Assembly: GCA_024711295.1 (NCBI GenBank)
Contig: JANJTB010000002.1
Span: 145,804-209,803, forward strand
Origin: a bacterium
GTDB taxonomy: Bacteria > Bacteroidota > Ignavibacteria > Kapaibacteriales > UBA2268
Length of the DNA: 64,000 nucleotides
Direction: 5' to 3'
The notes beneath the pieces were generated by a model, which was not told where the DNA came from, did not search any database, and saw nothing but the letters and a program-made list of their open reading frames with translations. The stretch's first letter is position 1; every line of letters starts with the position of its first letter. This document shows, one piece after another, positions 6,276 to 41,192 of this stretch. A program made the position numbers and the translations under genes.

Positions 6276-6538
6276 TTTATTTATTGTTCTTTGGAAATAT
6301 AACTATGGCACAAAAAAAAGAGCCCGAAATAGCGGCCAACTAATTCGAGCTTTATAGGGTGCATTTATCATGAAAAAAATGCAATGAAAAAGACGCACCT
6401 GCCATACAAATATTATAAATCGTGTTGAAATAAATGTTAGCATCATTAATACGGCCGATTAATCTTTGCTCATTTATATTTTTCAACCGCTTGTTTTTCT
6501 TTTATTTTTTTTTAATTAACTTTTTAGAGGGTCTTATC

Positions 6539-6985
6539 ATGAAAAAGCTTTTAGCAATTCTCGTAGTTGCAATTCTAGCAACAACTTTCGCTATGTCACA
6601 ACACAATGCACCAGTAACTGCAAATGCAAATTTTGACATTGCAGTTATCCAACCCTTATCTTGGTCAAAAACTGCAGATGTTGATCTTGGTGCAGTAATA
6701 ACAGGCTTCGTAAAACCTGTAGTTGCAAACATTACTTTTACTTTACAAGGTGAGTTTCAGTACGGCAATACTCCATATAAAGTTGATATTACTAGTTCAG
6801 GTCCAGATCCTGTTGATGGAGTGGTTCTACATGGCACTTGGTCAGGAACAGGAACAGTAGATCTTGATGCTGCTGGTCAGGCTTCCGTAGTTTATACCAC
6901 AATCCATGTAGATGCAACAGCTGCTACATCAAATGGGTCAAAAGTATTCACAATTAGTGTTAATGCTAAATATAACAATTTATAA
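6539..6985 (+). CDS. Small secreted pilin-like protein, paralog 1 (conserved mature N-terminus QHNxPV)
   Basis: There is a GAGGG Shine-Dalgarno sequence 8 nt upstream. The signal peptide is 'MKKLLAILVVAILATTFAMS'. The protein is paralogous to the next two genes. Confidence 0.65.
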   Translation: MKKLLAILVVAILATTFAMSQHNAPVTANANFDIAVIQPLSWSKTADVDLGAVITGFVKPVVANITFTLQGEFQYGNTPYKVDITSSGPDPVDGVVLHGTWSGTGTVDLDAAGQASVVYTTIHVDATAATSNGSKVFTISVNAKYNNL

Positions 6986-7013
6986 TTAAATAACAACTTA
7001 TGGAGTATTTATC

Positions 7014-7523
7014 ATGAAAAAGTTTATCATATTAATCGTTTTCTTAGCCGCTTTAGGCACATTATTTTCTCAGCACAACAATCCGGTTCAATCAGATAAC
7101 GGCAATTTAACAGCAAAAGTAATCAAACCTTTTTATGTAATTGATATAACTGATAATATACCTAATGGTAATCCAGTACCTGAAGTAATTAAAGGTCAAA
7201 AAAGGGTTTTGACTGCACCTGAAGGTATCTTGCTTTTTGAAATGGGACGTGAAGCACCTTATATAGTTGACTTTGAACTAAAAATTCCTCAACCTGTTGA
7301 TGGAGTAACGATCGTTGGATGGTGGGAATTTTATGAAGAAGCACCTCCTATGACATTTTCATTCCCCGGTTATCCACTTAACCAATATTGGTACTGGGAG
7401 AATTCTACAAGAGATAAAGGATGGATAACATTCAAAATTTCTGAGATTGATGCAAGAAATGCCAATTCTACTGGAATCAAGACTTTTACTGTCAATGCAA
7501 AAGGTCAATACAGAAGCCTTTAA
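7014..7523 (+). CDS. Small secreted pilin-like protein, paralog 2
   Basis: Signal peptide followed by 'SQHNNPV...LTAKVIKP', which is shared with paralogs 1 and 3. A GGAG Shine-Dalgarno sequence lies upstream. The C-terminal 'TFTVNAK' resembles the paralog 1 ending 'FTISVNAK'. Confidence 0.65.
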   Translation: MKKFIILIVFLAALGTLFSQHNNPVQSDNGNLTAKVIKPFYVIDITDNIPNGNPVPEVIKGQKRVLTAPEGILLFEMGREAPYIVDFELKIPQPVDGVTIVGWWEFYEEAPPMTFSFPGYPLNQYWYWENSTRDKGWITFKISEIDARNANSTGIKTFTVNAKGQYRSL

Positions 7524-7556
7524 TTTCATAAAACAAAACTATTTAAAGGTATAGTT

Positions 7557-8045
7557 ATGAAAAATTTAATAAGCTGCATGTTCGTACTTTTGATTTCAGG
7601 AGTTGTGTTTGCACAAACACATAATCCTGTGGTCGGAGATGAAGGAACAATGACAGCAAAAGTTATAACGCCACTGACTGTCTTCGAGCCATCTGAATTA
7701 ATGGAATACGTTGTAATCCAAAATCAAACTAAAACTCTAACAGCTGACAATAAGTTTGAGTTCAGACTTGAAGGTGAGGCAGGAATGTTTGTTAACGTCA
7801 ACTTTATCGGACCCAATGCAGTTGTACAGCCACCAATTGGTAGCATACCAGTGCTAAGTGGTGCTTGGTTCGGACCTGGTAATGTTCCTGTAACAGGCAA
7901 TAGTGGTACATACCAAATTCCTGATTTTCCTGCTGAGTCATTTTTTGATGTATTTTTTGAGTTGAATACAATAAATGCAACAGGAGCTGACTTAGGTATA
8001 GTAACATACGAACTTGGAATTGAATATTCTTATCAAGGTATGTAA
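7557..8045 (+). CDS. Small secreted pilin-like protein, paralog 3
   Basis: Signal peptide followed by 'AQTHNPVVGDEGTMTAKVITP', which is paralogous to the two preceding genes. Confidence 0.65.
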   Translation: MKNLISCMFVLLISGVVFAQTHNPVVGDEGTMTAKVITPLTVFEPSELMEYVVIQNQTKTLTADNKFEFRLEGEAGMFVNVNFIGPNAVVQPPIGSIPVLSGAWFGPGNVPVTGNSGTYQIPDFPAESFFDVFFELNTINATGADLGIVTYELGIEYSYQGM

Positions 8046-8061
8046 AATTATAATATTTATA

Positions 8062-8091
8062 AAAAGCACCCATAGAAATATGGGTGCTTTT
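8062..8091 (+). terminator. Intrinsic terminator or attenuator after the three pilin-like genes (AAAAGCACCCA-tagaaata-TGGGTGCTTTT)
   Basis: An 11-bp stem followed by a T-run is read directly. It sits between the subunit genes and the downstream assembly genes. Confidence 0.65.
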
Positions 8092-8099
8092 CAATAAAA

Positions 8100-8549
8100 A
8101 TGAAAAAAACAAAGGTAATATTAACTATAATTTTGATTTCCATCTTCTGGACCGGTAATTTAAGCTATGGCATTGAAGATACCGATAATCCAATTGAAGT
8201 ATTCGCATATTATGATTTAAACATCGGAACAATACCCATAGGAATGAAGAAAGTTTTCGAGAGTGACGAACAAATAATCAAGTTTGTCATCAAGTGCAAA
8301 AAAGACAGATTGATTAGAATTACAAAGATAAATGAAATAGGAAATGAATTTTTGATTATAGATGCAGACTGGAAAGCAGGTCCATTTACAGGTTACGAAA
8401 TCCCATTTAGCGGACTTGGCATTTACAGGAGCGAGCAGGATATATTTTTATTAACAATTAAAATCAAATCAATAGAAGTGAAAAGCTACACACAATCCGG
8501 CAAATACCAAATATCACCGAAGATTACTGTTGATTACGCAGATTTATAA
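8100..8549 (+). CDS. Small secreted protein of 149 aa; it could be a minor subunit or adaptor
   Basis: The signal peptide is 'MKKTKVILTIILISIFWTGNLSYG'. It is not similar to the three pilin-like paralogs. Confidence 0.45.
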   Translation: MKKTKVILTIILISIFWTGNLSYGIEDTDNPIEVFAYYDLNIGTIPIGMKKVFESDEQIIKFVIKCKKDRLIRITKINEIGNEFLIIDADWKAGPFTGYEIPFSGLGIYRSEQDIFLLTIKIKSIEVKSYTQSGKYQISPKITVDYADL

Positions 8550-8598
8550 CTGCTTAGGAAAATAACCATACTTATTTTTTTGTTAGGAGTAAACAAAC

Positions 8599-9432
8599 AT
8601 GAAAAAACTTACAATATTAACATTGCTGATAATAATGCTTACCCAGTTTGATTTGCTTTCGCAGGTAGGGATTTATCCACAGGCAGTTTTCTTGAATCAG
8701 AAAAATAGGGCAAGTAATCTTAAAGTACTAAATATGACTAATGAAACAAAAGAAATAATTCTTGACCTAAAGTTTGGATATCCTGATTATGACTCTCTGG
8801 GCAACTATTCTCTGGTTTACGGCGACACATTGCCCGGCGCTAAGTGGTCGGCTGTACCCTTTGTCAGAATGTTTCCCAAAAGATTACTTCTCAAGGCAAA
8901 TGAGGAACAAGTTGTTAAGTTCATGTTAGGCAATATGGGGAATGTACCTGATGGTACTTATTTTGGAAGAATCCATGTTCTTTCAAAAAATCCACCTGAA
9001 GAAATTGATACAACCTATACAGAATCAATTACAGCAAAAATTGACATACATTTTACACTTATTTCTGCATTGATTGTTGACAAAGGCAAAACTTACTGTG
9101 ATATAAGTGTTAAGCCGATGGGAACATTCTCAGATTCAAACATGGTCAATTTCTTAGTGAATGTAAATAAAGATGGTAATGCTCCATTTTTGGGTACAAC
9201 TGAAATGAAAGTATATGATTCTATGGGTAAACTTGTGGCACAAAGCAAGGACTTAACACCGTTCTATTTTAGTGGTACAAGATCTTTCAGATTCGATAAG
9301 AAATTATTTTCGAATGGTCGTTACAACGTCGAGCTTACAATGTCAAACGAGCACAAGGACGTTCCTGACGATTTCAAAGTAGCAATTAAGCCTGTAAAAG
9401 AAACATTCTCTGTTGATTTAGATGGTATATGA
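8599..9432 (+). CDS. Periplasmic PapD-like fimbrial chaperone candidate
   Basis: Signal peptide present. The mature N-terminus 'GIYPQAVFLNQKNRASNLKVLNMTNETKEIILDL' follows the 'I.P.r.if.......sl.v.N' pattern of pilus chaperones. At 277 aa the size is typical. The assignment rests on motif memory only. Confidence 0.4.
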   Translation: MKKLTILTLLIIMLTQFDLLSQVGIYPQAVFLNQKNRASNLKVLNMTNETKEIILDLKFGYPDYDSLGNYSLVYGDTLPGAKWSAVPFVRMFPKRLLLKANEEQVVKFMLGNMGNVPDGTYFGRIHVLSKNPPEEIDTTYTESITAKIDIHFTLISALIVDKGKTYCDISVKPMGTFSDSNMVNFLVNVNKDGNAPFLGTTEMKVYDSMGKLVAQSKDLTPFYFSGTRSFRFDKKLFSNGRYNVELTMSNEHKDVPDDFKVAIKPVKETFSVDLDGI

Positions 9433-19252: not shown

Positions 19253-20827
19253 ATGAAAGTTGACATTGAACATCCAAAATTATTTGATAATTTCAGACAT
19301 GACATACCTGCCGGAATAGTTGTTTTCCTTGTAGCTGTTCCTCTGTGCCTGGGTATAGCATTAGCATCGGGAGTGCCACTATTCGCCGGAATTATTTCAG
19401 GAATAATTGGAGGTACTGTTGTGGCTTTGTTAAGCGGGTCTCACCTGAGTGTCAGTGGTCCTGCGGCCGGTCTTACCGTAATTGTATTAAACGGGCTGAT
19501 AACATTAGGTTCATTCGAAACTTTCCTGCTTGCAGTTGTTATTGCCGGGGTTATTCAAATAATTCTTGGTTACCTTAAAGCAGGTATAATAGGATATTAC
19601 TTTCCAAGTTCAGTAATTAAAGGTATGCTCGCTGCCATCGGATTAATTCTGATACTAAAACAAATACCACACGCGATAGGTTATGATTTTGTCACTGTTG
19701 GAGACGAAAGTTTCATAGAACCAGGTGGCTCAACTACTTTCGGGTCATTAATGGCATCTTTCCAATTATTGAATTACGGAGCTGTCATCATCAGTATTTT
19801 GTCAATATTTATTCTTGTTTATTGGGAAAAACCATTCTTCAAAAGGTTTACATTTTTTAAAATTGTACCCGGACCTCTATTTGTAGTTCTATTTGGCATT
19901 GGTTTAAATTACTTTTTTAATGCATTCTTTCAGGGCTTGACCATTCAGGAAACTCATCTCGTAAATTTGCCTACTAGTACAAATCTTCAAGAGTTTGCAG
20001 TGCAATTTACTTTACCAAACTTTGGCTCAATAAGCAATCCTGACGTTTGGCTGGTAGGGCTTACACTAGCAATTGTTGCAAGCATCGAAACGCTTTTGAG
20101 TATTGAAGCTATAGATAAACTTGACCCTTACAAAAGGACTTCACCCACAAACAGAGAGCTTAAAGCTCAAGGAGTAGGGAATATCCTATCAGGTCTGATT
20201 GGAGGATTACCTGTTACATCAGTTATCGTTCGCAGTTCTGCAAATGTTAACTCAGGTGGCAGAACTAAATTTGCAGCAATTACACATGGAGTTCTACTTA
20301 TAGCAAGTGTAATACTAATCCCTACGTTTCTAAATTTAATACCTCTTGCCAGCTTGGCTGCCATACTACTTGTAGTTGGGTATAAATTGGCTAAATGGCA
20401 ACTGTTCAGAGAAATGTATAGACTTGGTCCATCACTTTTTTACCCTTTTGTTGTTACAATTATTGCCATCCTCTTTACCGACCTGCTCAAAGGTATAGGT
20501 ATAGGCATGGTGGTTGGATTGTTTTATATTATCAAAAATAATTACAAAACACCTTATTTCTTTCACAAAGAAGAACATCAGGTGGGCGATGTAGTTACTC
20601 TAAAATTATCCGAAGATGTCAGTTTCCTTAACAAAGGTAGTATTTTGCTGACACTTTCTCATTTACCCGAAAATTCAAAACTTATAATAGATGGTACTAA
20701 TTCCGTAAACATCGATTATGATGTACTAGAGATAATTTATGATTTTATTGAAAATGCCAAATATAAAAATATTGACGTTCAACTGATAAATATACCAAGA
20801 ATTGAATTTAGCTCAACATCACATTAA
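19253..20827 (+). CDS. SulP-family anion permease (sulfate or bicarbonate transporter) with a C-terminal STAS domain
   Basis: The SulP N-terminal signature 'GIALASGVPLFAGIISGIIGGTVVALLSGS' is present, with several transmembrane segments and a STAS-like C-terminus. Confidence 0.8.
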   Translation: MKVDIEHPKLFDNFRHDIPAGIVVFLVAVPLCLGIALASGVPLFAGIISGIIGGTVVALLSGSHLSVSGPAAGLTVIVLNGLITLGSFETFLLAVVIAGVIQIILGYLKAGIIGYYFPSSVIKGMLAAIGLILILKQIPHAIGYDFVTVGDESFIEPGGSTTFGSLMASFQLLNYGAVIISILSIFILVYWEKPFFKRFTFFKIVPGPLFVVLFGIGLNYFFNAFFQGLTIQETHLVNLPTSTNLQEFAVQFTLPNFGSISNPDVWLVGLTLAIVASIETLLSIEAIDKLDPYKRTSPTNRELKAQGVGNILSGLIGGLPVTSVIVRSSANVNSGGRTKFAAITHGVLLIASVILIPTFLNLIPLASLAAILLVVGYKLAKWQLFREMYRLGPSLFYPFVVTIIAILFTDLLKGIGIGMVVGLFYIIKNNYKTPYFFHKEEHQVGDVVTLKLSEDVSFLNKGSILLTLSHLPENSKLIIDGTNSVNIDYDVLEIIYDFIENAKYKNIDVQLINIPRIEFSSTSH

Positions 20828-20842
20828 AAAGGAGACAACAGA

Positions 20843-21472
20843 ATGATTCAATCGTATCAAAGATTACTTGATGGTAATAAAAAATGGGTGGAAACAAAAT
20901 TAACACTCGACCCTGAATATTTTCAGAATCTCAACAAAGGGCAAAAACCGGATTTTCTTTGGGTAGGGTGCTCTGATAGCCGTGTACCTGCAAATGAGAT
21001 TACCGGAACCGAGTCCGGTGATATTTTTGTGCACCGTAATATCGCAAATGTAGTAGTACATACTGATTTGAATTTCATGAGTGTGCTTCAGTATGCAGTA
21101 CAGGTCTTAAATGTCAGGCATATAATTGTATGCGGACATTATAACTGTGGAGGAGTCAATGCCGCCCTCACCCATACTAATCATGGTATGGTTAATAAAT
21201 GGCTAAGGAACATAAAGGAGGTTTATGCCAAGAACTCGTCTCTGTTAGATTCAATAAGTGATTTCAATGAAAAAGCCAACAAACTAGTTGAATTGAATGT
21301 TATCGAGCAGGTAAGAAATCTTGCCAAAACTTCGATAGTACAGGAAGCTTGGAAAAATCACAGCCTACAAATTCATGGTTGGGTATATGGATTAGATTCA
21401 GGTCTTATAAAAGACTTAAATGTGATGATGAAAGAGATTGAAGATTTAGAACCAATTTTTAGATTTAGCTAA
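20843..21472 (+). CDS. Beta-class carbonic anhydrase
   Basis: 'CSDSRVP' and 'HYNCGG' are the zinc-ligand motifs. Confidence 0.8.
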   Translation: MIQSYQRLLDGNKKWVETKLTLDPEYFQNLNKGQKPDFLWVGCSDSRVPANEITGTESGDIFVHRNIANVVVHTDLNFMSVLQYAVQVLNVRHIIVCGHYNCGGVNAALTHTNHGMVNKWLRNIKEVYAKNSSLLDSISDFNEKANKLVELNVIEQVRNLAKTSIVQEAWKNHSLQIHGWVYGLDSGLIKDLNVMMKEIEDLEPIFRFS

Positions 21473-21586
21473 TATAATTATTTACGTTGTTAATAAAAAA
21501 GTTAAAAATAAATAAAATAATTATAATCATATATTGTCTTTACTACTGTAGTCTTATTTTTTCAAATTATTATGGAGTTTTATAAC

Positions 21587-21910
21587 ATGAAATCAATCAA
21601 AATTCTTGCAATAGCATTAGGTTTGTTGTTTTCTTTATCAGTTTACAGCGGCTATGCCTGCGATAAGCACAAAACATCAGCTAAGTCTGAATGCTCAGTT
21701 GACATGAAGAAAACTAGTACTGCCGATGCTAAATCATGCTGCACTACTGACAAGAAAACTGCTTCTAAATCAGAATGCTGCACTACTGACAAAAAGACTG
21801 CTTCTAAATCAGAATGCTGCACTACTACTAAAAAAAGCACTAAATTAGAAGCTAAAAATGAAGGCACCAAAGATGTAAAGACTGCAGAAGTTAATCCTAT
21901 TAACAACTAA
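21587..21910 (+). CDS. Small secreted Cys-rich protein containing three tandem 13-aa repeats (TDKKTASKSECCT)
   Basis: Signal peptide present. A GGAG Shine-Dalgarno sequence lies 9 nt upstream. The DNA carries 39-nt tandem repeats at 21737..21840. Confidence 0.55.
   Translation: MKSIKILAIALGLLFSLSVYSGYACDKHKTSAKSECSVDMKKTSTADAKSCCTTDKKTASKSECCTTDKKTASKSECCTTTKKSTKLEAKNEGTKDVKTAEVNPINN
21737..21840 (+). repeat. 39-nt tandem repeat, about 2.6 copies, inside a coding region (TGCTGCACTACTGACAAGAAAACTGCTTCTAAATCAGAA)
   Basis: Read directly. Copies 1 and 2 differ at 3 positions. There is a partial third copy and a degenerate copy upstream. Confidence 0.8.
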
Positions 21911-21938
21911 AAAGTCTGAAAAATCTAACATAAAGATT

Positions 21939-21968
21939 GAGCAACAGTAATGTTGCTCTTTTTTTTAT
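21939..21968 (+). terminator. Intrinsic terminator (GAGCAACA-gtaa-TGTTGCTC followed by T8)
   Basis: Read directly. Confidence 0.7.
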
Positions 21969-22037
21969 TTTTTTTTCGGATTATTTGTAACTTTTTTGTT
22001 AAAAAATTCGTTATAGTACTGTAAAGAGATTACAAAT

Positions 22038-22526
22038 ATGAAATTTTTAGTTTTGATATTTTTACTTTTACCTTTAATTGCATTAGGCAAAGAGAATTAC
22101 ATCGTTTACAATGATGATAAAGGAAAATTGATAATAGACGGGCTTACGGATTTTGAAGATTGGAAAAAGGAAACAGAATGGGACTTTGATAATACCGGAG
22201 TAATTTTCTCTAAAGATACAATAAATTTGTTGAAAAGTAAATTCTCTGATACAAAGCTCATTTTGGTTGGAGGCTCTTGGTGTGGAGACACAAGGTCTGA
22301 ATTTCCGAAGATATACAGACTGCTCAAAGAGATGAATGCCTTACTACATGTCACAGTTTTTGGAGTTGACAGAACCAAATTAATAAAACATGTTGATTTT
22401 CAGAATTTGATAATCAACAAAGTACCTACATTGATTGTAATGCAAGGTGGAATAGAAAAAGGTCGAATTGAGGAGTTTCCGGAGTCAGGTTGGGAACATG
22501 ATTTATTGATTATATTGGGAGATTAA
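22038..22526 (+). CDS. Thioredoxin-fold protein with a single-Cys WCGDT motif, secreted
   Basis: Signal peptide present. 'LVGGSWCGDTRSEFPKI' sits at the thioredoxin active-site position, with the second Cys replaced. Confidence 0.45.
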   Translation: MKFLVLIFLLLPLIALGKENYIVYNDDKGKLIIDGLTDFEDWKKETEWDFDNTGVIFSKDTINLLKSKFSDTKLILVGGSWCGDTRSEFPKIYRLLKEMNALLHVTVFGVDRTKLIKHVDFQNLIINKVPTLIVMQGGIEKGRIEEFPESGWEHDLLIILGD

Positions 22527-22600: not shown

Positions 22601-23038
22601 ATGAAAAGTTACAATTTAAAAATTAAGATATTATTGTTGATGCTGTTTACTGTAACAGTATTAGGTAACAATGGTATTCTACAGTACTTTACAGCTGAAT
22701 CCAACGGAGATTCGGTTACTGTTAAATGGTCAACTTCTTCTGAAGATGACATAAAAAGATTTGAATTAGAACGAAGCATATCAACCTCAGCATTCAAAAG
22801 AATTTTTGTTCAGACTGCCAAAGGCTCTCCAAATTCTTATTCTTATAATGATACAGAAGCATTTATGAAGCAAGATGAAGAACCCGACTCAGACTTTCAA
22901 TCACAAAAAACTTATTCATATAGGATAAAAATCTATTATAACGATAATAGCTTTACATATAGTGATGCCACATTGGTCAAGCACAAACCAAGCAGTATCC
23001 GTCGTACTTGGGGAATGATTAAAGAAATGTTCAGATAA
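22601..23038 (+). CDS. Hypothetical secreted protein
   Basis: Signal peptide. Nothing recognisable. Confidence 0.35.
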   Translation: MKSYNLKIKILLLMLFTVTVLGNNGILQYFTAESNGDSVTVKWSTSSEDDIKRFELERSISTSAFKRIFVQTAKGSPNSYSYNDTEAFMKQDEEPDSDFQSQKTYSYRIKIYYNDNSFTYSDATLVKHKPSSIRRTWGMIKEMFR

Positions 23039-23049
23039 CATTTTTTATT

Positions 23050-24750
23050 ATGAATAGTTTTAGATTTGTAACCGGCATTTTAGTTGTTTTTCTACTCATT
23101 ATTTCTACTTTAGCAGCAGATGATCACAATTGTGAAGATTGTACCAATAAGTGCGGTACTTCAATTCTGCTGAATAATCATGCAACCAAAGAGCAGTTGT
23201 TAAGAACCATCAGATTAGATGCTAGCGGCTTACCGCTTTTGGGTCATAAATTTGCTGTCTCACCCACTAATATATTCAAAATTCATTACGACACATCTGG
23301 TGTTCATGCACCCAATTTGACTGATCTTAACCAAAACGGAATACCCGATTTTGTAGATTCTGTTGCATACTACTTTGATTTTGTATATGATATTTATATA
23401 AATGAACTTGGCTATCGCAGCCCCTATCCTGATAATAATCAAAGGGGTTCAGACCATTATGATGTTTATTTGGGGGATGTAGGTAACAGTGACGATGCAA
23501 ATGTACAACTTTATTCCGAAGGCGGAACTTACGGATTTACTGATTATACCAGTAAAGATGTAATAGCTACTTCACCTTTTATGAGAATGTACAGCTATAT
23601 AGTGATTGACAATGACTTCGCTGTTACTGATAGTGTAAGGCCATTAAAGAGTAAGCCTTATGCAGCATTTAAATATCCCGGAATACCTTCCTTGAAGGTT
23701 ACAGTAGCACATGAGTTTTATCATGCAATACAGTTTATGTACGGAATAAGCCAGCCGGCAGCAAGTACTATTATGGAAATGACAGCTACTGCAGTTGAAA
23801 GGTATTTTTTTGCAGATGTACCCGATTACATCAAATATGTGAGGCGATTGTTCAATAATCCTTCTAGTATGCCGTTCGGAATGGATGATGCCTACACCGG
23901 TTATTCTCATTCAGTATATAATCAGTTTTTGATCGAGAAATACGGAATAGAAATACTCCGATTGTTATGGGAGAATGTAGCTCAGGGTATCGAAGTTTAC
24001 AAGGCATTGGATAATGCATTAATCTTTTATGGCTCATCATTGCCTAATTCTTGGTGTGAATTTTTGGAGTGGGCATATTTTACCGGTGACCGATCAGGCG
24101 ACAAAAGCAATTTTTCCAACTCTGAAGAGTTACCTACAATTATTCCTTTTTCTGATATACTGTTCGAAGCACCTTCAAAGAGTTTATCGGGCAGACTCTC
24201 CCCTATTGAGTTTAGATTATTGAGGATGGCATTCCCTGGTATAGGCGAAATCAGTGATGATACACTTGATGTGATGCTGGGTAACATTGATATTGCAAAC
24301 GCATCTAAGCAGCTGGATGTTTCCAGAAGTTATTTCTGGCAGGTTGCTAATTCGGAATTTACAAACAGTAAAATTATAGAGGGTACTAATTATTGGTATT
24401 TCCTTGAAACAGATACAAATTTCTTATGTTCATTCCGCAATTTAAGTAAGGGTGGAGCGAATTATGAGATTGATTACGCTTATCCAAGTCCTTTCAGATT
24501 AAGCCAAGACAGTTACATTTTATTCCCTGCACCATCAGATACCGAATTATACAAAAAGGTTAGTCTGGTGCTCTATAACAGCGATATGACTCCAATTTAC
24601 AACGGTATAATTCAGGTAACATCCAACAACAACAAATTGGTTGTAAGATTAGATGACTTGCCTAAAAACCTTACAAGTGGTGTTTATATCTTCGGAGTTC
24701 ATAATGGCGATAAAATTAAACTTGGTAAACTAGCTGTAATAAACGAATAA
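23050..24750 (+). CDS. Secreted HEXXH zinc-metallopeptidase-like protein with a T9SS C-terminal domain
   Basis: Signal peptide. 'VAHEFYHAIQF' is an HEXXH motif. The C-terminal ~80 aa match the T9SS CTD pattern ('YPSPF...GVYIFGV...KLGKLAVI'). Confidence 0.45.
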   Translation: MNSFRFVTGILVVFLLIISTLAADDHNCEDCTNKCGTSILLNNHATKEQLLRTIRLDASGLPLLGHKFAVSPTNIFKIHYDTSGVHAPNLTDLNQNGIPDFVDSVAYYFDFVYDIYINELGYRSPYPDNNQRGSDHYDVYLGDVGNSDDANVQLYSEGGTYGFTDYTSKDVIATSPFMRMYSYIVIDNDFAVTDSVRPLKSKPYAAFKYPGIPSLKVTVAHEFYHAIQFMYGISQPAASTIMEMTATAVERYFFADVPDYIKYVRRLFNNPSSMPFGMDDAYTGYSHSVYNQFLIEKYGIEILRLLWENVAQGIEVYKALDNALIFYGSSLPNSWCEFLEWAYFTGDRSGDKSNFSNSEELPTIIPFSDILFEAPSKSLSGRLSPIEFRLLRMAFPGIGEISDDTLDVMLGNIDIANASKQLDVSRSYFWQVANSEFTNSKIIEGTNYWYFLETDTNFLCSFRNLSKGGANYEIDYAYPSPFRLSQDSYILFPAPSDTELYKKVSLVLYNSDMTPIYNGIIQVTSNNNKLVVRLDDLPKNLTSGVYIFGVHNGDKIKLGKLAVINE

Positions 24751-34500: not shown

Positions 34501-34729
34501 GCTCTACACCCAAAAAATAGAAAAAGACGGATTAAATATGAATTATTTATTTTTCAAATTCTTATTTGTCAGACACAATTATTGAAGTTTTTTATATATA
34601 ATACTTATAAATCATTGGCTTAGGATTGTTATCACAGTGATACCCCCACCCCCAAAATATTACCAATATAGTTTTAAAATTGTTTTAAAATGGGTTAATT
34701 GTTATAAGTAGCTGATATGCTTACATTTG

Positions 34730-34816
34730 CGGAGAGGGAGGGATTCGAACCCTCGGTACAGTTACCCGTACAACGGTTTTCGAGACCGCCACATTCAACC
34801 ACTCTGCCACCTCTCC
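34730..34816 (-). tRNA. tRNA-Ser (anticodon CGA), class II with a long variable arm
   Basis: The reverse complement GGAGAGGTGGCAGAGTGG...GGTTCGAATCCCTCCCTCTCCG folds as a cloverleaf with anticodon loop CTCGAAA. Confidence 0.85.
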
Positions 34817-34861: not shown

Positions 34862-35551
34862 TTAACGATTTTTAATATCCACATCAATATTTAAATTAAC
34901 ATGCTTAATGATTTTTGACTCAACCATAAAATATACTTCTTCAGCCAATGACTTTGAGATTTTAGAAATTTGAAGCAGGTAATTACAAACTTCATAGAAA
35001 GTCATAACTTCAGATAGTTGATTTCCTCTTTCAATTATTTCTTTTTTAATCAGCTTTGATAATTCCATGTATTTAGTATTCAATGATTCGAACTGCAAAA
35101 TAGCCTTCATAGCTTTATCGGAATCAGATTGTATAAATGATCCGAATGACAAAGTGATTTGGGACTCAATCAAACTAAAATATTCATTTGCATTTAATTC
35201 ATTGAAGAATATTGGTTTCTGAAAATCAAGTTCTTTGAGATTTTCAGCTATCACTTGGCAATTATCACTTATTAGCTCAAGTTTGCTGCTGACAGTATAA
35301 GCTGTAAGTACAAACCTTAAGTCACAGGCTATTGGATTGTTCAGGGCGAGAATTTTTCGTGAAATTTTATCAATTTTAACATCATATTTATCAATAGTCA
35401 GCTCATTTTTTGTTATTCTGTCTAATAGAGTATTATCAGATGAACCAATCCCATTCAGTAATGTTAAAATTTGATTCTCGGTAATATTAACCATTTCGAA
35501 AATCATTTTTCTCAACTTCGCGAATCTTTTATCGTAACTTATGTCTATCAT
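34862..35551 (-). CDS. phoU: Phosphate transport system regulator PhoU
   Basis: A two-repeat helical protein of 229 aa, located downstream of pstB. Confidence 0.75.
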   Translation of the reverse strand: MIDISYDKRFAKLRKMIFEMVNITENQILTLLNGIGSSDNTLLDRITKNELTIDKYDVKIDKISRKILALNNPIACDLRFVLTAYTVSSKLELISDNCQVIAENLKELDFQKPIFFNELNANEYFSLIESQITLSFGSFIQSDSDKAMKAILQFESLNTKYMELSKLIKKEIIERGNQLSEVMTFYEVCNYLLQISKISKSLAEEVYFMVESKIIKHVNLNIDVDIKNR

Positions 35552-35566
35552 TTGTTCTCCAATTAA

Positions 35567-36346
35567 TTATCCAAATCTTCCGGTAACATAGTCTTCAGTT
35601 TGTTTGACGCTAGGATTGGTAAAGATCTTAGTGGTCTTATCAAACTCAACTAGCTCTCCATTAAGTATGAATGCTGTGTAGTCGCTTAATCTTGCTGCCT
35701 GCTGAAGGTTGTGAGTCACTATTACAATGGTAATCGTTTTTTTTATGGTATGAATCAATTCTTCAATCTTTGATGTAGATGCAGGGTCGAGTGCCCCTGC
35801 AGGTTCGTCAAGCAGCAATATTTCAGGCTTTACTGCCAATGCTCTGGCAAGGCAAAGTCTTTGCTGCTGCCCACCGGATAATCCCATTGCAGGTGCAGAC
35901 AGGTTGTCCTTGACTTCACTCCACAAACCGCTTATTTTGAGAGCTTGTTCTACCTCAAATTCAATTCTATGTTTATCGTTAGTAATATTATTAACTTTAA
36001 TACCAAATGCAATGTTATCGAAAATTGATTTTGGAAATGGATTGGATTTCTGAAAAATCATACCCACTTTTCTTCTTAATAAAACAGTGGAAACTCCCTT
36101 GTCAAATATGGAAATACCATCGAGAAAAATATCTCCGGAGAATGTTGTTTTGGGTATCAAATCATTAAGTCTGTTTATTGACCTAAGCAAAGTTGTTTTA
36201 CCACAACCCGATGGTCCAACTATTGACGTAACCATTTTGTCGGGAAAGCTGATATTAATATTCTTAAGAGCGGGCTTTCCATTGTAATAAAATGAGTAGT
36301 CCTCAGATTTAATTTTTTCAACAAATGTTTTATTACTTTTTTTCAT
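35567..36346 (-). CDS. pstB: Phosphate ABC transporter ATP-binding protein PstB
   Basis: 'GPSGCGKTTLLR', 'LSGGQQQRLCLARAL' and 'LLLDEP' are present, in pst context. Confidence 0.85.
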   Translation of the reverse strand: MKKSNKTFVEKIKSEDYSFYYNGKPALKNINISFPDKMVTSIVGPSGCGKTTLLRSINRLNDLIPKTTFSGDIFLDGISIFDKGVSTVLLRRKVGMIFQKSNPFPKSIFDNIAFGIKVNNITNDKHRIEFEVEQALKISGLWSEVKDNLSAPAMGLSGGQQQRLCLARALAVKPEILLLDEPAGALDPASTSKIEELIHTIKKTITIVIVTHNLQQAARLSDYTAFILNGELVEFDKTTKIFTNPSVKQTEDYVTGRFG

Positions 36347-36380
36347 ATATTCATTTATTTAGAATAGCTTCAATAATCAA

Positions 36381-38009
36381 TTATAATAATCCCTGACTAA
36401 TTTTCTGTCTTAATTTTGACCGGATATGAATTGCAATCATATTAAGCATTACAACAATAATAATCAGCAACAAAGTAGTCATAAATAGCATTGGGAATCC
36501 TGCCTCTACGTTAGGTGACTGAAAGCCAACATCGTATATATGAAATCCTAAATGCATAAACTTACGCTCAAGATGAAAGAACGGAAAAGTAGAATCCAGA
36601 GGTAAATCGGGAGCTAACTTAACAACTCCGGTGATCATCAAGGGTGCAACTTCGCCAGCTCCCCTTGCAATAGCAAGTATCAATCCTGTCATAATTCCGG
36701 GTGTAGATGCAGGAAGCAGAATTTTTGATACCATTTGCAATTTGGTAGCTCCTAATGCAATTGATGCTTCTCTTATTTCAGTAGGTATTGAACTCAATGC
36801 CTCCTCAGTGGATACTATAACTACAGGCACAGTAAGTAATGCAAGAGTAAGAGATGCCCAAAGAATGCCACCAGTGCCCCAAACAGGTGCAGGCGAATAT
36901 TCAGGGTAAAAAATTGAATCTATCGTACCCCCTACCCCATAGATAAAGAAACCCAAACCAAAAATACCAAAAACTATTGATGGAACTCCAGCAAGATTGT
37001 AAACAGTAATCCTTATTATTTTAACCCACCAACCGTTTCCTGCATATTCATTAAGGAATAAAGCAGTTACTACTCCAATCGGAACAGCTATAATACTCAT
37101 CAGAATAACCATCATAACTGTACCGAATATTGCCGGAAAAATTCCTCCTTCTGTATTTGATTCTCTTGGCTCGAGTACAACGAACTCCCATAATTTTTTA
37201 GATATTAACTTAATTTTTGGAATAATGCCCAAATCATTTGGATAATAGTAGCTATGAATATTGATTGCTGGAATTATATGATTATTACCGCTGATGTCAC
37301 TAACAAGCAGAGCAAAAGAATTGGACTTCTGATAAAGTTCGTCAATAAGCTCCATATATTCAGAATACTTACTTTCAAGACTTTGAATTTGTTCCTCAAG
37401 CTGCTGCCTTAATTCATTCTTACCTGCCTTATTATCTCTTCGGGATTGATAATCTAATTTATTTATTTTACGCCGGATATTATCAATTTTACTATTCAGA
37501 TTACCAATTTTTTCAACTTCATACACTCTAATATCAGATTTAATAGAATTTGAAATATCAAATAAATCAAGCAAAACTTCTTTATCAGGTTTAGAATAAA
37601 AATAAATAGTATCAGTATTCTTGACAATTCCGTTCAAATATCCGATGAAGTTACCGTTTTGCATTCTCTCAATAATAATAGGATGATTTTTGTCTATATT
37701 ATTTTTTTTAATTTTTGACTTTTCTAATCTCACAAAATCATAACCGTAAATTTCACGATTACCAACTTTTACCAAAATTGATTCATCAATACCACCAAAC
37801 TCATCTGTTACATTTTGAACGCTAATAATTTGTCCAAGAATCATAGAATCGCCAAGAATCTGAATTCTATTGATTTTTCCGGGTACAAAATAGTCGGTTG
37901 CACCAACAGTACTGATATAAATAATACCAGAAAATATCACAAGAATAACTCCGAGAGCAATTCCAGCTGTCCAAATAAAGAAAGTACTTGTATCGAATAA
38001 GTTTTTCAT
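36381..38009 (-). CDS. pstA: Phosphate ABC transporter permease PstA, elongated (542 aa) with an extra periplasmic coiled-coil domain
   Basis: The C-terminal ~280 aa form the PstA transmembrane core ('ATKLQMVSKILLPASTPGIMTGLILAIARGAGE'). The N-terminal ~260 aa are extra. Confidence 0.75.
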   Translation of the reverse strand: MKNLFDTSTFFIWTAGIALGVILVIFSGIIYISTVGATDYFVPGKINRIQILGDSMILGQIISVQNVTDEFGGIDESILVKVGNREIYGYDFVRLEKSKIKKNNIDKNHPIIIERMQNGNFIGYLNGIVKNTDTIYFYSKPDKEVLLDLFDISNSIKSDIRVYEVEKIGNLNSKIDNIRRKINKLDYQSRRDNKAGKNELRQQLEEQIQSLESKYSEYMELIDELYQKSNSFALLVSDISGNNHIIPAINIHSYYYPNDLGIIPKIKLISKKLWEFVVLEPRESNTEGGIFPAIFGTVMMVILMSIIAVPIGVVTALFLNEYAGNGWWVKIIRITVYNLAGVPSIVFGIFGLGFFIYGVGGTIDSIFYPEYSPAPVWGTGGILWASLTLALLTVPVVIVSTEEALSSIPTEIREASIALGATKLQMVSKILLPASTPGIMTGLILAIARGAGEVAPLMITGVVKLAPDLPLDSTFPFFHLERKFMHLGFHIYDVGFQSPNVEAGFPMLFMTTLLLIIIVVMLNMIAIHIRSKLRQKISQGLL

Positions 38010-40207
38010 CAGTTCATCTTATTCAATGTTTTTCTTTTTAATTTCATTCTGATTAATTCAGCCATTGTATTGATAATGAATGTAAAAACAAACAACAGAC
38101 TTGCAGATAAAAATAATATTCTGTACAAAGTACCACCAACAGGTGCCTCGGGTATCTCGATTGCAATATTAGCCGACAAGGACCTCAATCCTGTAAACAA
38201 ACTCCAATCATTTATTGGAGTATTTCCAGCAACCATCAGTACTATCATTGTTTCTCCTATCGCGCGAGCAAATGCAAGCATTATTGCCGAAAAAATACCT
38301 GATGAAGCATAAGGCAAAATAACTCTGTATGCAGTCTGCCAATTATTTGCTCCTAATGCATAAGATGACATTATTAAGCTTTTTGGCACTATATTAATTG
38401 AATCTTCGCTAAGAGTAAATATCATCGGAATTATGGATATACCTAATGCAAATCCGACAATTATCCCGTTGCGCTGCTCATAATGAATACCCATGTTAAC
38501 ATTAAGCCAACTCACAAAATCATTATCCACCAATGATTTAATTATAGTATCAGCTATAAAATATGATGTTAATAATAAAGTTGCAACAGAAATAATATTT
38601 ATGATTGACTCTTTCGTTGAATAAAATTTATTATCTATTTTTAATTTTAAAAAATTTAAAATGATAATACCTAATATCATAATTAATGGGAAAATTATCA
38701 AAAATGTAATAATCACTGGAACATAGAATTCCAGAATCGGAGCTAACCATAATGATACAATAAAACCTATTACTACAGTTGGAATAGCTGTCATTATCTC
38801 AACAAAGTTTTTAATGTAATTCTTTAGTTTGTCATTCAAATACAACGAGGTGTACAATGCTGCAAGTACAGCTAATGGCACAGCAAAAATCATTGCAAAA
38901 ATCGTCCCCTTCAAGGTTCCCGTTATCAATGGAATCAAAGAGTATTTAGATTCGTAATCATCAGTACCACCTGATGATTGCCATATATAATCGCTTTGTA
39001 GGTAACCCTCATATTTAACTTTACTGAATAAAGTATTAATATTTACATCAATATTCGACTTCTCAATTTCATAAATCTTGATTTGATTATTTGTATGTGT
39101 AAGAGCTAATTTGCCATTTTTGGTAATCGAAAGTGAATTGATTTCATTATGGCCATTTTCATTTGCAATATTAATTACACCCTTATCAAATGGCTGGTAA
39201 TATAATTCAGTATACCCGCCTTCAAATATCACGAAAAAACTCTTATCAATGTTTGATGCAATTACATTTTTAGCTGATAGATTTCCACTTTCATATCTTT
39301 TGGAAAATTTTAGTGAAAATGGAATTATAACATCAGAGCTGTTAATAAATTCAAGTAAAAAAACTCCCCTGTCTGTTGCGCAAATTACACTTTGCTCACT
39401 ATTCGAAAAATCAATATTTGTGATCTCTCCTGATAGTTTGATTTGATTAACAAACATATATGAGCTGTCATCCCGTTTAAAATAAAGAACATTATTTGAT
39501 GTTGTTATTAATAAATTCTCTAATCTGCTATCTGTTAATATCTTCCCTACAACTCCCAAAGTTGTGTCGTAATCAATTCTAAAAGTGTTGAATATTTTTG
39601 AAGAATCAAGTGGATCGGTAGTTTTATCAGTCAGCTTGATAGTACATAAGGTATCGGAATTGTTTATTTGGCATAAAAAGTAATTACCATCAACACTTCT
39701 TTTGATTTGCACTAATTTGGGATTACCAAGTCGAACATCAGGAACTTTATCAATATAAAAAAACTTATCAACTTCATCATTCCTCACACTATGATTAAAT
39801 ACTATTTTATACAGTTCACCTGATATGTTCTCAAGTAATACTATTTTATCATCTTTGCTTTTGATAGCATCATTTACTGATACTCCAAGATCATTATGAT
39901 ACACATTCTTGTTGGATTTAATTTCGAATATGCTGATAGTACCAGATGAATCAATGTAATAATAGTAAGTATTAGAAATAAAGCCGCTAACAAGTATCTT
40001 ATTTTCAGTTTTATGACTAAGGATATTTTTCGAGCTTACCGGTTTGAATAAAGGCAGAGACTGTATAACAACAAATGCAAGAATACCAATAACAGCAATC
40101 AGAGTAATAATCCCTCCCCCAAAAATTAAGTATTTTGCTATACTATCGCTTAAGAGAGCTTTGAAAAGCTTGTAATTCTTACTCTTGATATTTATATTTT
40201 TGTCCAA
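38009..40207 (-). CDS. pstC: Phosphate ABC transporter permease PstC, elongated (732 aa) with a large N-terminal periplasmic domain
   Basis: The C-terminal ~300 aa form the PstC core ('SSYALGANNWQTAYRVILPYASSGIFSAIMLAFARAIGETM'). An N-terminal transmembrane segment is followed by a ~400-aa beta-rich domain. Confidence 0.75.
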   Translation of the reverse strand: MDKNINIKSKNYKLFKALLSDSIAKYLIFGGGIITLIAVIGILAFVVIQSLPLFKPVSSKNILSHKTENKILVSGFISNTYYYYIDSSGTISIFEIKSNKNVYHNDLGVSVNDAIKSKDDKIVLLENISGELYKIVFNHSVRNDEVDKFFYIDKVPDVRLGNPKLVQIKRSVDGNYFLCQINNSDTLCTIKLTDKTTDPLDSSKIFNTFRIDYDTTLGVVGKILTDSRLENLLITTSNNVLYFKRDDSSYMFVNQIKLSGEITNIDFSNSEQSVICATDRGVFLLEFINSSDVIIPFSLKFSKRYESGNLSAKNVIASNIDKSFFVIFEGGYTELYYQPFDKGVINIANENGHNEINSLSITKNGKLALTHTNNQIKIYEIEKSNIDVNINTLFSKVKYEGYLQSDYIWQSSGGTDDYESKYSLIPLITGTLKGTIFAMIFAVPLAVLAALYTSLYLNDKLKNYIKNFVEIMTAIPTVVIGFIVSLWLAPILEFYVPVIITFLIIFPLIMILGIIILNFLKLKIDNKFYSTKESIINIISVATLLLTSYFIADTIIKSLVDNDFVSWLNVNMGIHYEQRNGIIVGFALGISIIPMIFTLSEDSINIVPKSLIMSSYALGANNWQTAYRVILPYASSGIFSAIMLAFARAIGETMIVLMVAGNTPINDWSLFTGLRSLSANIAIEIPEAPVGGTLYRILFLSASLLFVFTFIINTMAELIRMKLKRKTLNKMN

Positions 40208-40208
40208 A

Positions 40209-41192
40209 TTATTTGATTACCTTAAGTTCTTTATTAATCAAATCATTGGTCAGAGGTAGGAAACCATCTTTTACTACAATAGATTGCCCCTCATAGCTGA
40301 GAATAAATTTAATAAACTCCAAAACAAGTAAATCGCTTTCTTTCTGAGGATTATTATTTATATACAAATACATGAACCTGCTTAATGGATAATTACCACT
40401 AAGTATATTGTCATAGTCGGGGAATGCGGGCTTAGAGTTGTTTTTATTCATAATACCCAGGATTTTGACACCTGTAGTTTTAAATCCTGCCCCACTATAT
40501 CCAATGCTGTATTTATCATTACTTACACCCTGTATAACGGACGAAGAACCCAACAATTCCTGCACTTTATTTTTAAAATCTCCTTTAAAAAGTGCATGCT
40601 CCTTAAAGAAACTGTAGGTACCTGATGCTGAGTTACGACCATAAATACTTATTGGTCTATCCCTCCAATACTTGTTTTTCAGACCAATATCACCCCAGGT
40701 TGTAATATTTCGTTTATATCCACCCTTTCTATTGACGGAAAAAATTGCATCAAGCTCTGCAATTGTTATATAATTCATGGGATTACTATTATTAACATAT
40801 ATGGCAAGAGCATCTAATGCAATTTTTATTTCAGTAGGTTTATAGCCAAATTTCGCTTCAAATTTGTCAATCTCTTCATTTTTCATTGGTCTTGACATTG
40901 GACCCAGCTGTGCTGTTCCACTAATTAGAGCAGGTGGTGCAGTTGACGATCCTTTACCCTCGACCTGAATTTTAACATTCGGATAAATCTTCTGAAAACC
41001 TTCAAGCAACAAAGTAATAAGATTATTCATCGAGTCCGAACCAATACTGCTGAGATTGCCAGAGACACCTGTCACTTTCTTATACTTAGGAATGTCTTTA
41101 TCAACTGTAACATTGATATTTGAAAAGAGGAATTGTATAGCTAATATGAAAAAGATAAACGTTGATAATATTCCAATTCTCATAACAAGCAC
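40209..41192 (-). CDS. pstS: Phosphate-binding protein PstS
   Basis: Signal peptide followed by the PBP fold 'SGSSTAPPALISGTAQLGPMSRPMK'. Confidence 0.75.
   Translation of the reverse strand: MLVMRIGILSTFIFFILAIQFLFSNINVTVDKDIPKYKKVTGVSGNLSSIGSDSMNNLITLLLEGFQKIYPNVKIQVEGKGSSTAPPALISGTAQLGPMSRPMKNEEIDKFEAKFGYKPTEIKIALDALAIYVNNSNPMNYITIAELDAIFSVNRKGGYKRNITTWGDIGLKNKYWRDRPISIYGRNSASGTYSFFKEHALFKGDFKNKVQELLGSSSVIQGVSNDKYSIGYSGAGFKTTGVKILGIMNKNNSKPAFPDYDNILSGNYPLSRFMYLYINNNPQKESDLLVLEFIKFILSYEGQSIVVKDGFLPLTNDLINKELKVIK

Follow-up and report, generated by a model that had tools for sequence, protein, structure and literature searches.

A lineage-restricted exported protein with in-frame Cys-bearing repeats, possibly a thiolate buffer of the cell envelope

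Introduction

Is a short, low-complexity open reading frame (ORF) that repeats pairs of adjacent cysteines a real gene, and if so, what could its product do outside the cytoplasm? The question is raised by a 64,000-nt stretch of DNA (hereafter the window; contig JANJTB010000002.1 of assembly GCA_024711295.1, positions 145,804 to 209,803 of the forward strand) from a bacterium of the Kapaibacteriales (Bacteroidota; Ignavibacteria; UBA2268). A preliminary description, made from the letters alone, had placed in it a secreted mini-protein whose gene contains 39-nt tandem repeats, each coding for a CC pair. That proposal is borne out as a genuine gene, here called the Cys-repeat gene, and we hold the anatomical description of the gene and its product given below with high confidence. 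As to function, we tentatively favor the buffering of soft metals by its thiolates in the cell envelope. All positions are counted from the first letter of the window, and the coordinates of the features are collected in Table 1.

Evidence for a gene under purifying selection

Sequence comparison argues that the interval 21587-21910 is a real, stand-alone protein-coding gene under purifying selection, because the ratio of non-synonymous to synonymous substitution rates (dN/dS) is low, a strain variant differs synonymously only, and a GGAG and a terminator accompany the gene in all ten family loci compared. Pairwise dN/dS against five orthologues is 0.10–0.37 at a dS of ~1. The strain variant (L013) differs from the window at four synonymous and no non-synonymous positions. 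The DNA behind the invariant peptide CDKHKTSAKSECS varies mostly at third codon positions. In addition, an identical protein of Candidatus Kapaibacterium sp. carries the annotation hypothetical protein MASR1M45_17240.

That the locus is a non-coding repeat, or that the ORF on the opposite strand is the true gene, has a negligible probability: although the sequence is of low complexity and the antisense ORF is open here and in orthologues, it is the sense frame that is under purifying selection with third-position variation, the plus strand is the one that conserves the signal peptide, Shine–Dalgarno (SD) sequence, and terminator, the antisense ORF starts with TTG, the minus-strand signals amount to the shared hairpin alone, without a T-run on that strand, and the sense codons AAR, ACN, TCN, and GCN probably leave few antisense stops. 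The antisense ORF spans 21652-21906 of the window (minus strand, 84 aa), 2352-2612 of locus L017, 7958-8320 of L018, and 6066-6326 of L020, with lengths of 84–120 aa. It is probably a by-product of the narrow codon set of the sense frame, to which TGC and GAR also belong.

The ORF finder opens the frame at ATG 21572, the start adopted in the preliminary description, and a second in-frame ATG follows at 21587. The true start is most likely the second one, because the GGAG is conserved, the first ATG is not, and other, independent gene callers also give a protein of 107 aa. In the window, the GGAG overlaps ATG 21572 and sits 9 nt 5' of ATG 21587. In all ten family loci, it lies 5–9 nt 5' of a start codon opening MK/MN…, and a counterpart of ATG 21572 is not conserved among them. 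The coding sequence comprises 107 codons and a stop; the end previously set at 21968 takes in the terminator hairpin and the T-run. Under the heuristic that the first ATG is the start, only 9 of 48 large ORFs of the window have any 4-mer SD core. Because the conserved SD of the Cys-repeat gene stands out against these ORFs, in a genome rarely using one, it suggests efficient translation and high expression.

Further upstream, each of the ten family loci has a motif [AT]GTC[T/A/C] at 30–75 nt 5' of its start codon, within strings of the type TAnnTT(T)G. The form [AT]GTCT is the sole upstream motif common to all ten, and it resembles the −7 promoter box of Bacteroidota. The exact promoter-like 9-mer is not enriched across the 64-kb window. 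AT-rich hexamers resembling Fur or Zur operators can be seen upstream by eye, but such hexamers are expected by chance in intergenic DNA of this composition, and they are not read as a metal-responsive operator. Rfam detects three tRNAs only in the whole window; 5' of the Cys-repeat gene, it shows neither a riboswitch nor a leader.

Downstream, a hairpin followed by a T-run stands 3' of the stop codon in all ten family loci, and the hairpin differs at each orthologous locus. Having its own ribosome-binding site and its own terminator in every one of them, the gene is probably a monocistronic, stand-alone unit. No terminator is detected between the upstream β-carbonic anhydrase gene and the Cys-repeat gene, and read-through transcription from the former into the latter may occur in the window species.

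A 39-nt tandem repeat within a Cys-rich mature chain

Tandem Repeats Finder and direct reading confirm the 39-nt tandem repeat. The exact unit is present twice, at 21737-21775 and 21776-21814, and not three times as first described, each full unit encoding CCTTDKKTASKSE. The two units are identical at 37 of 39 nt and differ at the remaining two only by an exchange of synonymous Lys codons (AAG AAA versus AAA AAG). The identity of these adjacent units is far above chance. The flanking copies are degenerate: the upstream one reads …TSTADAKSCC, and the downstream one, TTTKKSTKLEAKN, has lost its Cys.

The mature chain had been put at about 85 aa with about 9 Cys. It has 83 aa and 8 Cys, arranged as C-10-C-14-CC-11-CC-11-CC, that is, with three CC pairs and 11 residues between successive pairs. 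Its Cys-rich character stands. Cys accounts for 9.6% of the chain, compared with 0.60% over the remaining 51 ORFs of the window and 3.0% in the next richest ORF, and the chance probability of at least 8 Cys in 83 residues is 4e-8. The chain further contains 18 Lys (22%) together with 15 Thr and 10 Ser (30% Ser+Thr), has no aromatic residue, and carries a net charge of +6.

The middle of the chain consists of degenerate units of 11–16 residues of the form T-x-K-K-T-A-S-K-S-E-C-(C), flanked by an N-terminal module and a Cys-free tail. By direct reading, the mature sequence contains no Bacteroidota O-glycosylation motif, D-(S/T)-(A/I/L/V/M/T). The mature chain is predicted to be intrinsically disordered: AlphaFold2, given a 13-sequence alignment, returns a mean pLDDT of 47, with the helix of the signal peptide as the sole secondary structure.

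A small family of Kapabacteria and close relatives

A word-indexed search of 5.8 billion proteins returns four clusters, namely the window protein and three others at 56–64% identity. A HMMER profile scan of 1.84 billion representatives finds only seven proteins at E ≤ 1e-3, and a second profile search finds 13 clusters. Two Kapaibacterium metagenome-assembled genomes (MAGs), one MAG named 'Bacteroidota bacterium', and one contig come from further scans, which covered JGI metagenomes and a single genome for each species. The resulting comparison set comprises 17 distinct sequences, nearly all of them derived from MAGs of Candidatus Kapaibacterium, and the source name of every member is 'hypothetical protein'. 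As far as these searches reach, the Cys-repeat proteins form a small family that lacks annotation and is confined to Kapabacteria and their close relatives.

The Cys-repeat protein has no match in Pfam or NCBIfam. When 13 members are scanned at E ≤ 10, only sub-threshold noise appears; it consists of Galaxin_repeat, Conotoxin, and DUF6520 (the last on the signal peptide), none above its cut-off, and these candidates were set aside. A PDB search with the family profile gives no match, and tblastn finds no paralogue of the gene in the window.

All 17 members share a common layout, composed of a signal peptide, a mature start of the form (C)-D-K-x-K…E-C, a variable middle, and a Cys-free tail with the pattern K-L-E-A-K-N…V-K-T-A/V-E…P. 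The variable middle is made of units of 11–16 residues rich in Lys, Thr, Ser, and Ala, each closing with C or CC. Among the 12–13 members aligned, Asp at +2 of the mature chain is invariant, and Cys at +1, Lys at +3, and the second Cys are nearly so. Aromatic residues are absent from all 17 mature chains, Lys makes up ~20% and Ser+Thr ~30%, and the net charge ranges from +2 to +9 over all members.

In contrast to the termini, the Cys complement varies. The number of Cys ranges from 2 (in P0010, which has no CC pair) to 9 and is odd in 7 of the 17 members, and the spacing differs between clades. Cys makes up 7–10% of 16 of the mature chains, and 4–10% when all 17 are counted. Member L018 has SEC-S where the window protein has SECC and keeps one CC pair, and L019 has 5 Cys in 62 residues. 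His28 of the window protein is replaced by Gln, Thr, Ser, or Asn in other members. Because Cys number, parity, and position vary, there appears to be no fixed disulfide framework. A fixed disulfide-knotted fold is therefore unlikely, and free, metal-bound, or intermolecularly linked thiols fit better.

Repeat units are shared among strains and differ between lineages

The copy number of the repeat had been expected to vary by slippage. This expectation holds between lineages, where units are gained and lost, and fails within the window species, where all fetched loci have the same array. An exact-sequence look-up, which returns identical proteins only, yields 13 contigs of the window species, of which 10 loci were fetched, from at least 8 sequencing runs, one JGI sample, and one NCBI assembly. 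In this identical-protein look-up, the same 39-nt array is present in all 10 fetched loci, across at least 3 haplotypes. The haplotypes differ also at synonymous sites, and the coding repeat is invariant in the same contigs. Homopolymer differences within the species are seen in the A-run after the stop codon (21909-21915) and in the second terminator T-run (21959-21977), the latter also with a T/C substitution.

Neither the word-indexed search nor the second profile search finds a near-identical length variant of the window protein, and the members of each 90%-identity cluster are of equal length. Strain-level copy-number polymorphism of the kind that marks a contingency locus is thus not seen in the assembled contigs, clusters, and homology searches.

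Between lineages, the central region is different. An indel block of 13 aa separates P0012 from P0013, which otherwise share 90% identity, P0006 and P0015 are a 17-aa expansion apart, P0004 has a 4-aa insert, and L019 has one unit fewer. All length differences among the relatives compared are in frame, and the frame-breaking differences that would have spoken against the preliminary description are not observed. The comparison suggests that the central Cys-bearing units are duplicated, lost, and homogenized in frame across the family. Where orthologues have as many units as the window, their corresponding units are identical at 30–33 of 39 nt, as against 37 of 39 in the window, which points to recent homogenization of the two units of the window rather than net expansion. 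Since the array is the same among strains and the units differ between lineages, slippage or unequal exchange would therefore act over evolutionary time and not as a strain-level switch.

Predicted export and processing

The protein is most likely exported by the Sec route and cleaved by signal peptidase I, leaving a free N-terminal Cys-Asp-Lys. Signal peptidase I is favored because the −3/−1 pattern fits in all 17 members and differs from that of the probable lipoproteins of the window. All 17 have Ala at −1, together with Gly, Ser, Thr, Ala, or Met at −3. In the five probable lipoproteins of the window, by contrast, −3 is hydrophobic and −1 is Ser or Gly, never Ala.

The alternative is that the protein is a lipoprotein, with Cys25 lipidated at +1 after cleavage by signal peptidase II, the chain tethered to the membrane, and Asp+2 acting as a retention signal, as in E. 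coli. This alternative concerns location only and is compatible with any functional reading. It draws on the first mature residue, which is Cys in 15 of the 17 members, on the invariant Asp+2, and on the window sequence itself, which fits the permissive PROSITE pattern PS51257 in a manual check, so that lipidation may occur in this one species. For the family, we consider it unlikely. Two members lack Cys at +1, P0005 having Ala and P0014 Asn; three members carry Asp or Glu at −2, and −4/−3 is mostly polar, both of which the lipobox pattern excludes; and the probable lipoproteins of the window look different, as described above. A lipobox [LVI][ASTVI][GAS]C with an invariant Cys at +1 is not found across the family, −3 being polar or small in most members.

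A possible envelope buffer for soft metals

From composition only, we tentatively read the Cys-repeat protein as a thiolate buffer for soft metals in the envelope, either periplasmic or extracellular. The thiolates, mostly those of vicinal, Lys-flanked CC pairs, would form a flexible multidentate array there, and the flanking Lys residues would lower the thiol pKa. The array would bind the thiophilic ions Cu(I), Zn/Cd, Hg(II), and As(III), and the chain would fold or condense around the bound metal in the manner of a metallothionein. Soft metals would be buffered before their entry to the cytoplasm, with the number of units setting the capacity.

Metal or redox binding is plausible, given the likeness to metallothioneins in the abundance of Cys, Lys, Ser, Thr, and Ala, the lack of aromatics, and the predicted disorder. 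In ArsD and MerT/MerA, vicinal Cys pairs serve as ligands of soft metals. Because Cys count and parity vary across the family, free or metal-bound thiols fit better than a disulfide framework. As for related systems, bufferins, which are small Cys proteins exported via Sec, buffer copper in the periplasm (PMC11626156), and metallothioneins fold only on metal binding (PMC7558416).

Several observations weigh against this reading. No similarity to any metal-binding family is found by sequence or profile in Pfam, NCBIfam, or PDB. The ten family loci and the annotated parts of the 64-kb window have no metal sensor, metal-resistance gene, or efflux gene on record, and no ars, mer, or cop gene stands in the annotated neighborhoods. 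The Cys density of the family lies below the 15–30% typical of metallothioneins. The CC pairs appear dispensable, as judged from L018 and P0010, and His is not conserved in the family. Finally, free thiols in an oxidizing periplasm may tend toward disulfides.

Stated for the class as a whole, a version that we regard as somewhat more tentative, the proteins would be an exported, enzymatically unmodified metallothionein-like family of Kapabacteria, forming a disordered thiolate array. Its capacity would be tuned over evolution by in-frame gain, loss, and homogenization of 33–48-nt Cys-bearing units, and it would be unrelated to SmtA, MymT, Csp1, and bufferins.

Comparison with known systems

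Because each of the families SmtA/BmtA, MymT, Csp1, bufferin, and galaxin fails in at least one defining feature, we conclude from the comparison below that the Cys-repeat protein is not a member of any of them. The bacterial metallothioneins SmtA/BmtA and MymT are likewise small, rich in Cys, Lys, Ser, Thr, and Ala, without aromatics, and disordered without metal (PMC7558416), and multidentate thiolate binding of soft metals is the mode proposed here as there. However, known metallothioneins are cytosolic and lack a signal peptide, whereas the Cys-repeat protein is predicted to be exported. There is no sequence similarity either, and the Cys pattern of the family is not conserved. SmtA has 9 Cys in ~56 aa and a zinc-finger-like fold. 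No Metallothio_Pro or SmtA-type profile in Pfam or NCBIfam matches even at E ≤ 10, nor does the family profile find such a structure in PDB. Set against the operational traits of metallothioneins (low molecular weight, very high Cys, typically of at least 15%, few or no aromatics), the picture is mixed: the mature window chain has 83 aa, aromatics are lacking in 17 of 17 members, and Cys stands at 4–10%.

Bufferins (BufA1/DUF2282, BUF_6/12Cys) resemble the Cys-repeat protein in having an 80–120-aa precursor, a Sec signal peptide, and a small periplasmic Cys-containing product (PMC11626156). They differ in requiring an adjacent MNIO (DUF692) and a DUF2063 partner, none of which is recorded at the Cys-repeat loci, and in having fixed Cys positions (4, or 6/12) and a predicted fold, whereas the Cys-repeat family is variable and the pLDDT is 47. 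Csp1 is an exported, Cys-lined, high-capacity periplasmic Cu(I) store (PMC7558416), and in this it resembles the role proposed here. Csp1 has, however, a Tat signal and a rigid, pre-folded four-helix bundle that forms tetramers, whereas the Cys-repeat protein has a Sec-type signal (MKSIKIL…) without twin arginine, and no helices are predicted in its mature part.

Adjacent CC pairs also occur as ligands of As(III), Sb(III), and Hg(II) in ArsD and in MerT, MerC, and MerA, but there the pairs stand in folded cytosolic or membrane proteins of ars and mer operons, and no ars or mer gene lies near the Cys-repeat loci. Galaxin, a eukaryotic skeletal matrix protein of corals (Pfam PF24748), is secreted and has tandem CC-dipeptide repeats at regular intervals. 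The best score against it is 16.5 bits, against a cut-off of 28 bits, in 2 of 13 members, which speaks for a likeness of pattern and not for homology. The mode proposed for the Cys-repeat protein is most like that of a metallothionein placed in the envelope. The family is unannotated and lineage-restricted, and if the function holds, it would vary the theme of small thiol-rich metal buffers.

Alternative functions

A rather unlikely alternative would have the protein carry sulfane sulfur or polysulfide in the periplasm, or serve with its thiols as a sacrificial redox buffer, in a lineage often living in sulfidic habitats. The Lys-flanked thiolates would then carry persulfide or polysulfide, or absorb oxidants. 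The compositional evidence for it is the same as for metal binding, and the two readings are computationally indistinguishable. Cationic residues beside reactive Cys follow the logic of the Sud polysulfide carrier, and a gene for a secreted thioredoxin-fold protein lies directly downstream in the window species. Dissimilatory sulfur metabolism has been described for Kapabacteria relatives (PMC6338057). On the other hand, no sox, dsr, sqr, or psr gene is found near any family locus, and the thioredoxin-fold neighbor is not conserved and is separated by a terminator.

Improbable, too, is a structural role, in which a highly expressed, disordered, Lys-rich chain would act as a polycation of the envelope or matrix, binding lipopolysaccharide, extracellular DNA, or exopolysaccharide, and intermolecular disulfides would cross-link it, the Cys being cross-linking points and not ligands. 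The positive net charge of all members, the variable Cys parity, which tolerates intermolecular bonds, the conservation of the N- and C-terminal modules around a variable middle, and the strong conserved SD in a genome seldom using one, which suggests high expression, are consistent with such a role. The weak, sub-threshold resemblance to the di-Cys repeats of the matrix protein galaxin points the same way, but that match lies below its cut-off. In addition, no anchoring motif (lipobox, PEP-CTERM, C-terminal domain of the type IX secretion system (T9SS), or OmpA-like domain) is present, and matrix or exopolysaccharide genes are not consistently nearby.

The protein might also be the precursor of a peptide made by the ribosome and modified after translation (RiPP), its Cys, Ser, or Thr being altered by enzymes encoded elsewhere, as in bufferins, whose Cys are converted to thiooxazole by an MNIO enzyme (PMC11626156). 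The core is indeed rich in Ser, Thr, and Cys, and the bufferin precursors, which give periplasmic copper binders, are alike in size, Sec signal peptide, and Cys (PMC11626156). We consider this very unlikely. No maturase or partner gene (MNIO (DUF692), DUF2063, radical-SAM/SPASM, LanB/C/M, or YcaO) is recorded beside the ten loci, where the annotation is partly precomputed Pfam and several neighbors have no family; no match to DUF2282 or to another precursor family is found; and bufferins are predicted to be folded with fixed Cys, whereas the Cys-repeat protein is predicted to be disordered with variable Cys.

That the protein is a cationic, Cys-containing antimicrobial peptide or bacteriocin secreted via Sec, as its small size, net charge of +6, and 8 Cys might suggest, is scarcely credible, because amphipathicity is impossible with nearly no hydrophobic residues and no aromatics, and the Cys framework is not conserved, immunity and export genes are absent nearby, and the gene is single-copy in housekeeping neighborhoods.

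Gene neighborhood

The neighbors named in the preliminary description, a SulP permease and a β-carbonic anhydrase upstream and a thioredoxin-like gene downstream, are present as stated (Table 1). SulP and β-carbonic anhydrase form a classic pairing suggestive of bicarbonate transport. A role of the Cys-repeat protein in metal or sulfur handling had been drawn from this position. We find no basis for it, because the neighbors are not shared across lineages: they differ in every one, and the gene keeps its own ribosome-binding site and terminator. The ten family loci show nine different contexts and no conserved partner gene, and the order SulP, carbonic anhydrase, Cys-repeat gene, thioredoxin-fold gene occurs among them in the window species only.

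The neighbors are a histidine kinase and a 490-aa multi-pass membrane protein without Pfam match for P0002, a divergent peptidase U32 for P0003, a pantothenate kinase for P0004, a methionine aminopeptidase for P0008, topoisomerase I for P0009, an ECF sigma factor for P0011, topoisomerase I and a 2-Cys peroxiredoxin for P0012, M16 peptidases and MiaB for L018, and an MtaB-like enzyme and an ABC exporter for L019. Three of these were considered as partners and rejected. The peroxiredoxin beside P0012 is cytoplasmic and has no signal peptide. The ECF sigma factor comes after P0011, but P0009 is followed by unrelated genes in the equivalent place. MiaB and MtaB stand beside L018 and L019 only, not at the other eight loci, probably by coincidence. 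Judged by eye, the genes at 8418-9809 of L018 (minus strand) and 6610-7905 of L019 (plus strand) have the look of radical-SAM methylthiotransferases, MiaB-like and MtaB-like, respectively.

Table 1 Features of the Cys-repeat locus and its immediate neighbors.
Feature	Positions	Strand	Remarks
SulP-family permease	19253-20827	+	Upstream in the window
β-carbonic anhydrase	20843-21472	+	Starts 15 nt after SulP
Promoter-like region with TATATTGTCT and a second AGTCT	21530-21555	+	TATATTGTCT resembles the Bacteroidota-type −7 box TAnnTTTG
Shine–Dalgarno core GGAG	21574-21577	+	Present in 10/10 family loci
Coding sequence of the Cys-repeat gene	21587-21910	+	dN/dS, strain variant L013, third-position variation, identical annotated protein
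Signal peptide MKSIKILAIALGLLFSLSVYSGYA	21587-21658	+	24 aa; basic, hydrophobic, and polar regions in the usual order; predicted signal peptidase I cleavage after Ala24
N-terminal module of the mature protein, CDKHKTSAKSECS	21659-21697	+	First two Cys (C-x10-C); invariant in the four closest orthologues
39-nt tandem array	21729-21836	+	Tandem Repeats Finder: period 39, 2.8 copies, 89% matches
Cys-free C-terminal tail KLEAKNEGTKDVKTAEVNPINN	21842-21907	+	Pattern K-L-E-A…K-T-A-E…P kept across the family
Intrinsic terminator	21939-21968	+	Hairpin GAGCAACAGTAATGTTGCTC (21939-21958), then T-run; terminator scan: 8 pairs, 4 G-C, then T8
Secreted thioredoxin-fold gene	22038-22526	+	Weak Thioredoxin_9 match below the cut-off

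Other features of the window are recorded here in their own right. The annotated part is housekeeping in character, with a pst operon, ScpAB, BamA, RibD, T9SS cargo, and a TonB receptor. The secreted thioredoxin-fold protein has WCGDT at the active-site position, that is, one Cys followed by Thr in place of CxxC. It is followed by a gene for a 145-aa secreted protein of no known family (22601-23038) and by a gene for a putative HExxH metalloprotease of the MXAN_6640 family (23050-24750, plus strand; NCBIfam, 170.8 bits) with a weak T9SS sorting-domain tail. The region 6434-12608 (plus strand) has five consecutive ORFs (183, 169, 162, 149, and 277 aa) with no Pfam match, and after them a gene for a 1059-aa protein in which only a C-terminal OmpA domain is recognizable; it may be an uncharacterized envelope gene cluster. 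A complete phosphate-uptake cluster lies at 34862-41183 (minus strand), adjoining tRNA-Ser (34729-34816); it encodes a PstS-like binding protein, an ATPase, PhoU, and two permeases that are unusually long at 482 and 542 aa.

Implications

The Cys-repeat gene is a case of a coding tandem repeat under purifying selection, in which the units appear to be homogenized or exchanged in frame while the termini stay fixed. Whatever the function, the link to the adjacent SulP/carbonic anhydrase pair should go. If the reading as a soft-metal buffer is wrong, the protein would be another lineage-specific, low-complexity secreted protein. If it is true, the family would be an envelope analogue of metallothioneins that needs no maturation enzyme, in contrast to bufferins, and no rigid scaffold, in contrast to Csp1. 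It would then represent a third solution to the buffering of soft metals in the periplasm, by a compact metal-capture peptide tunable through its repeats.

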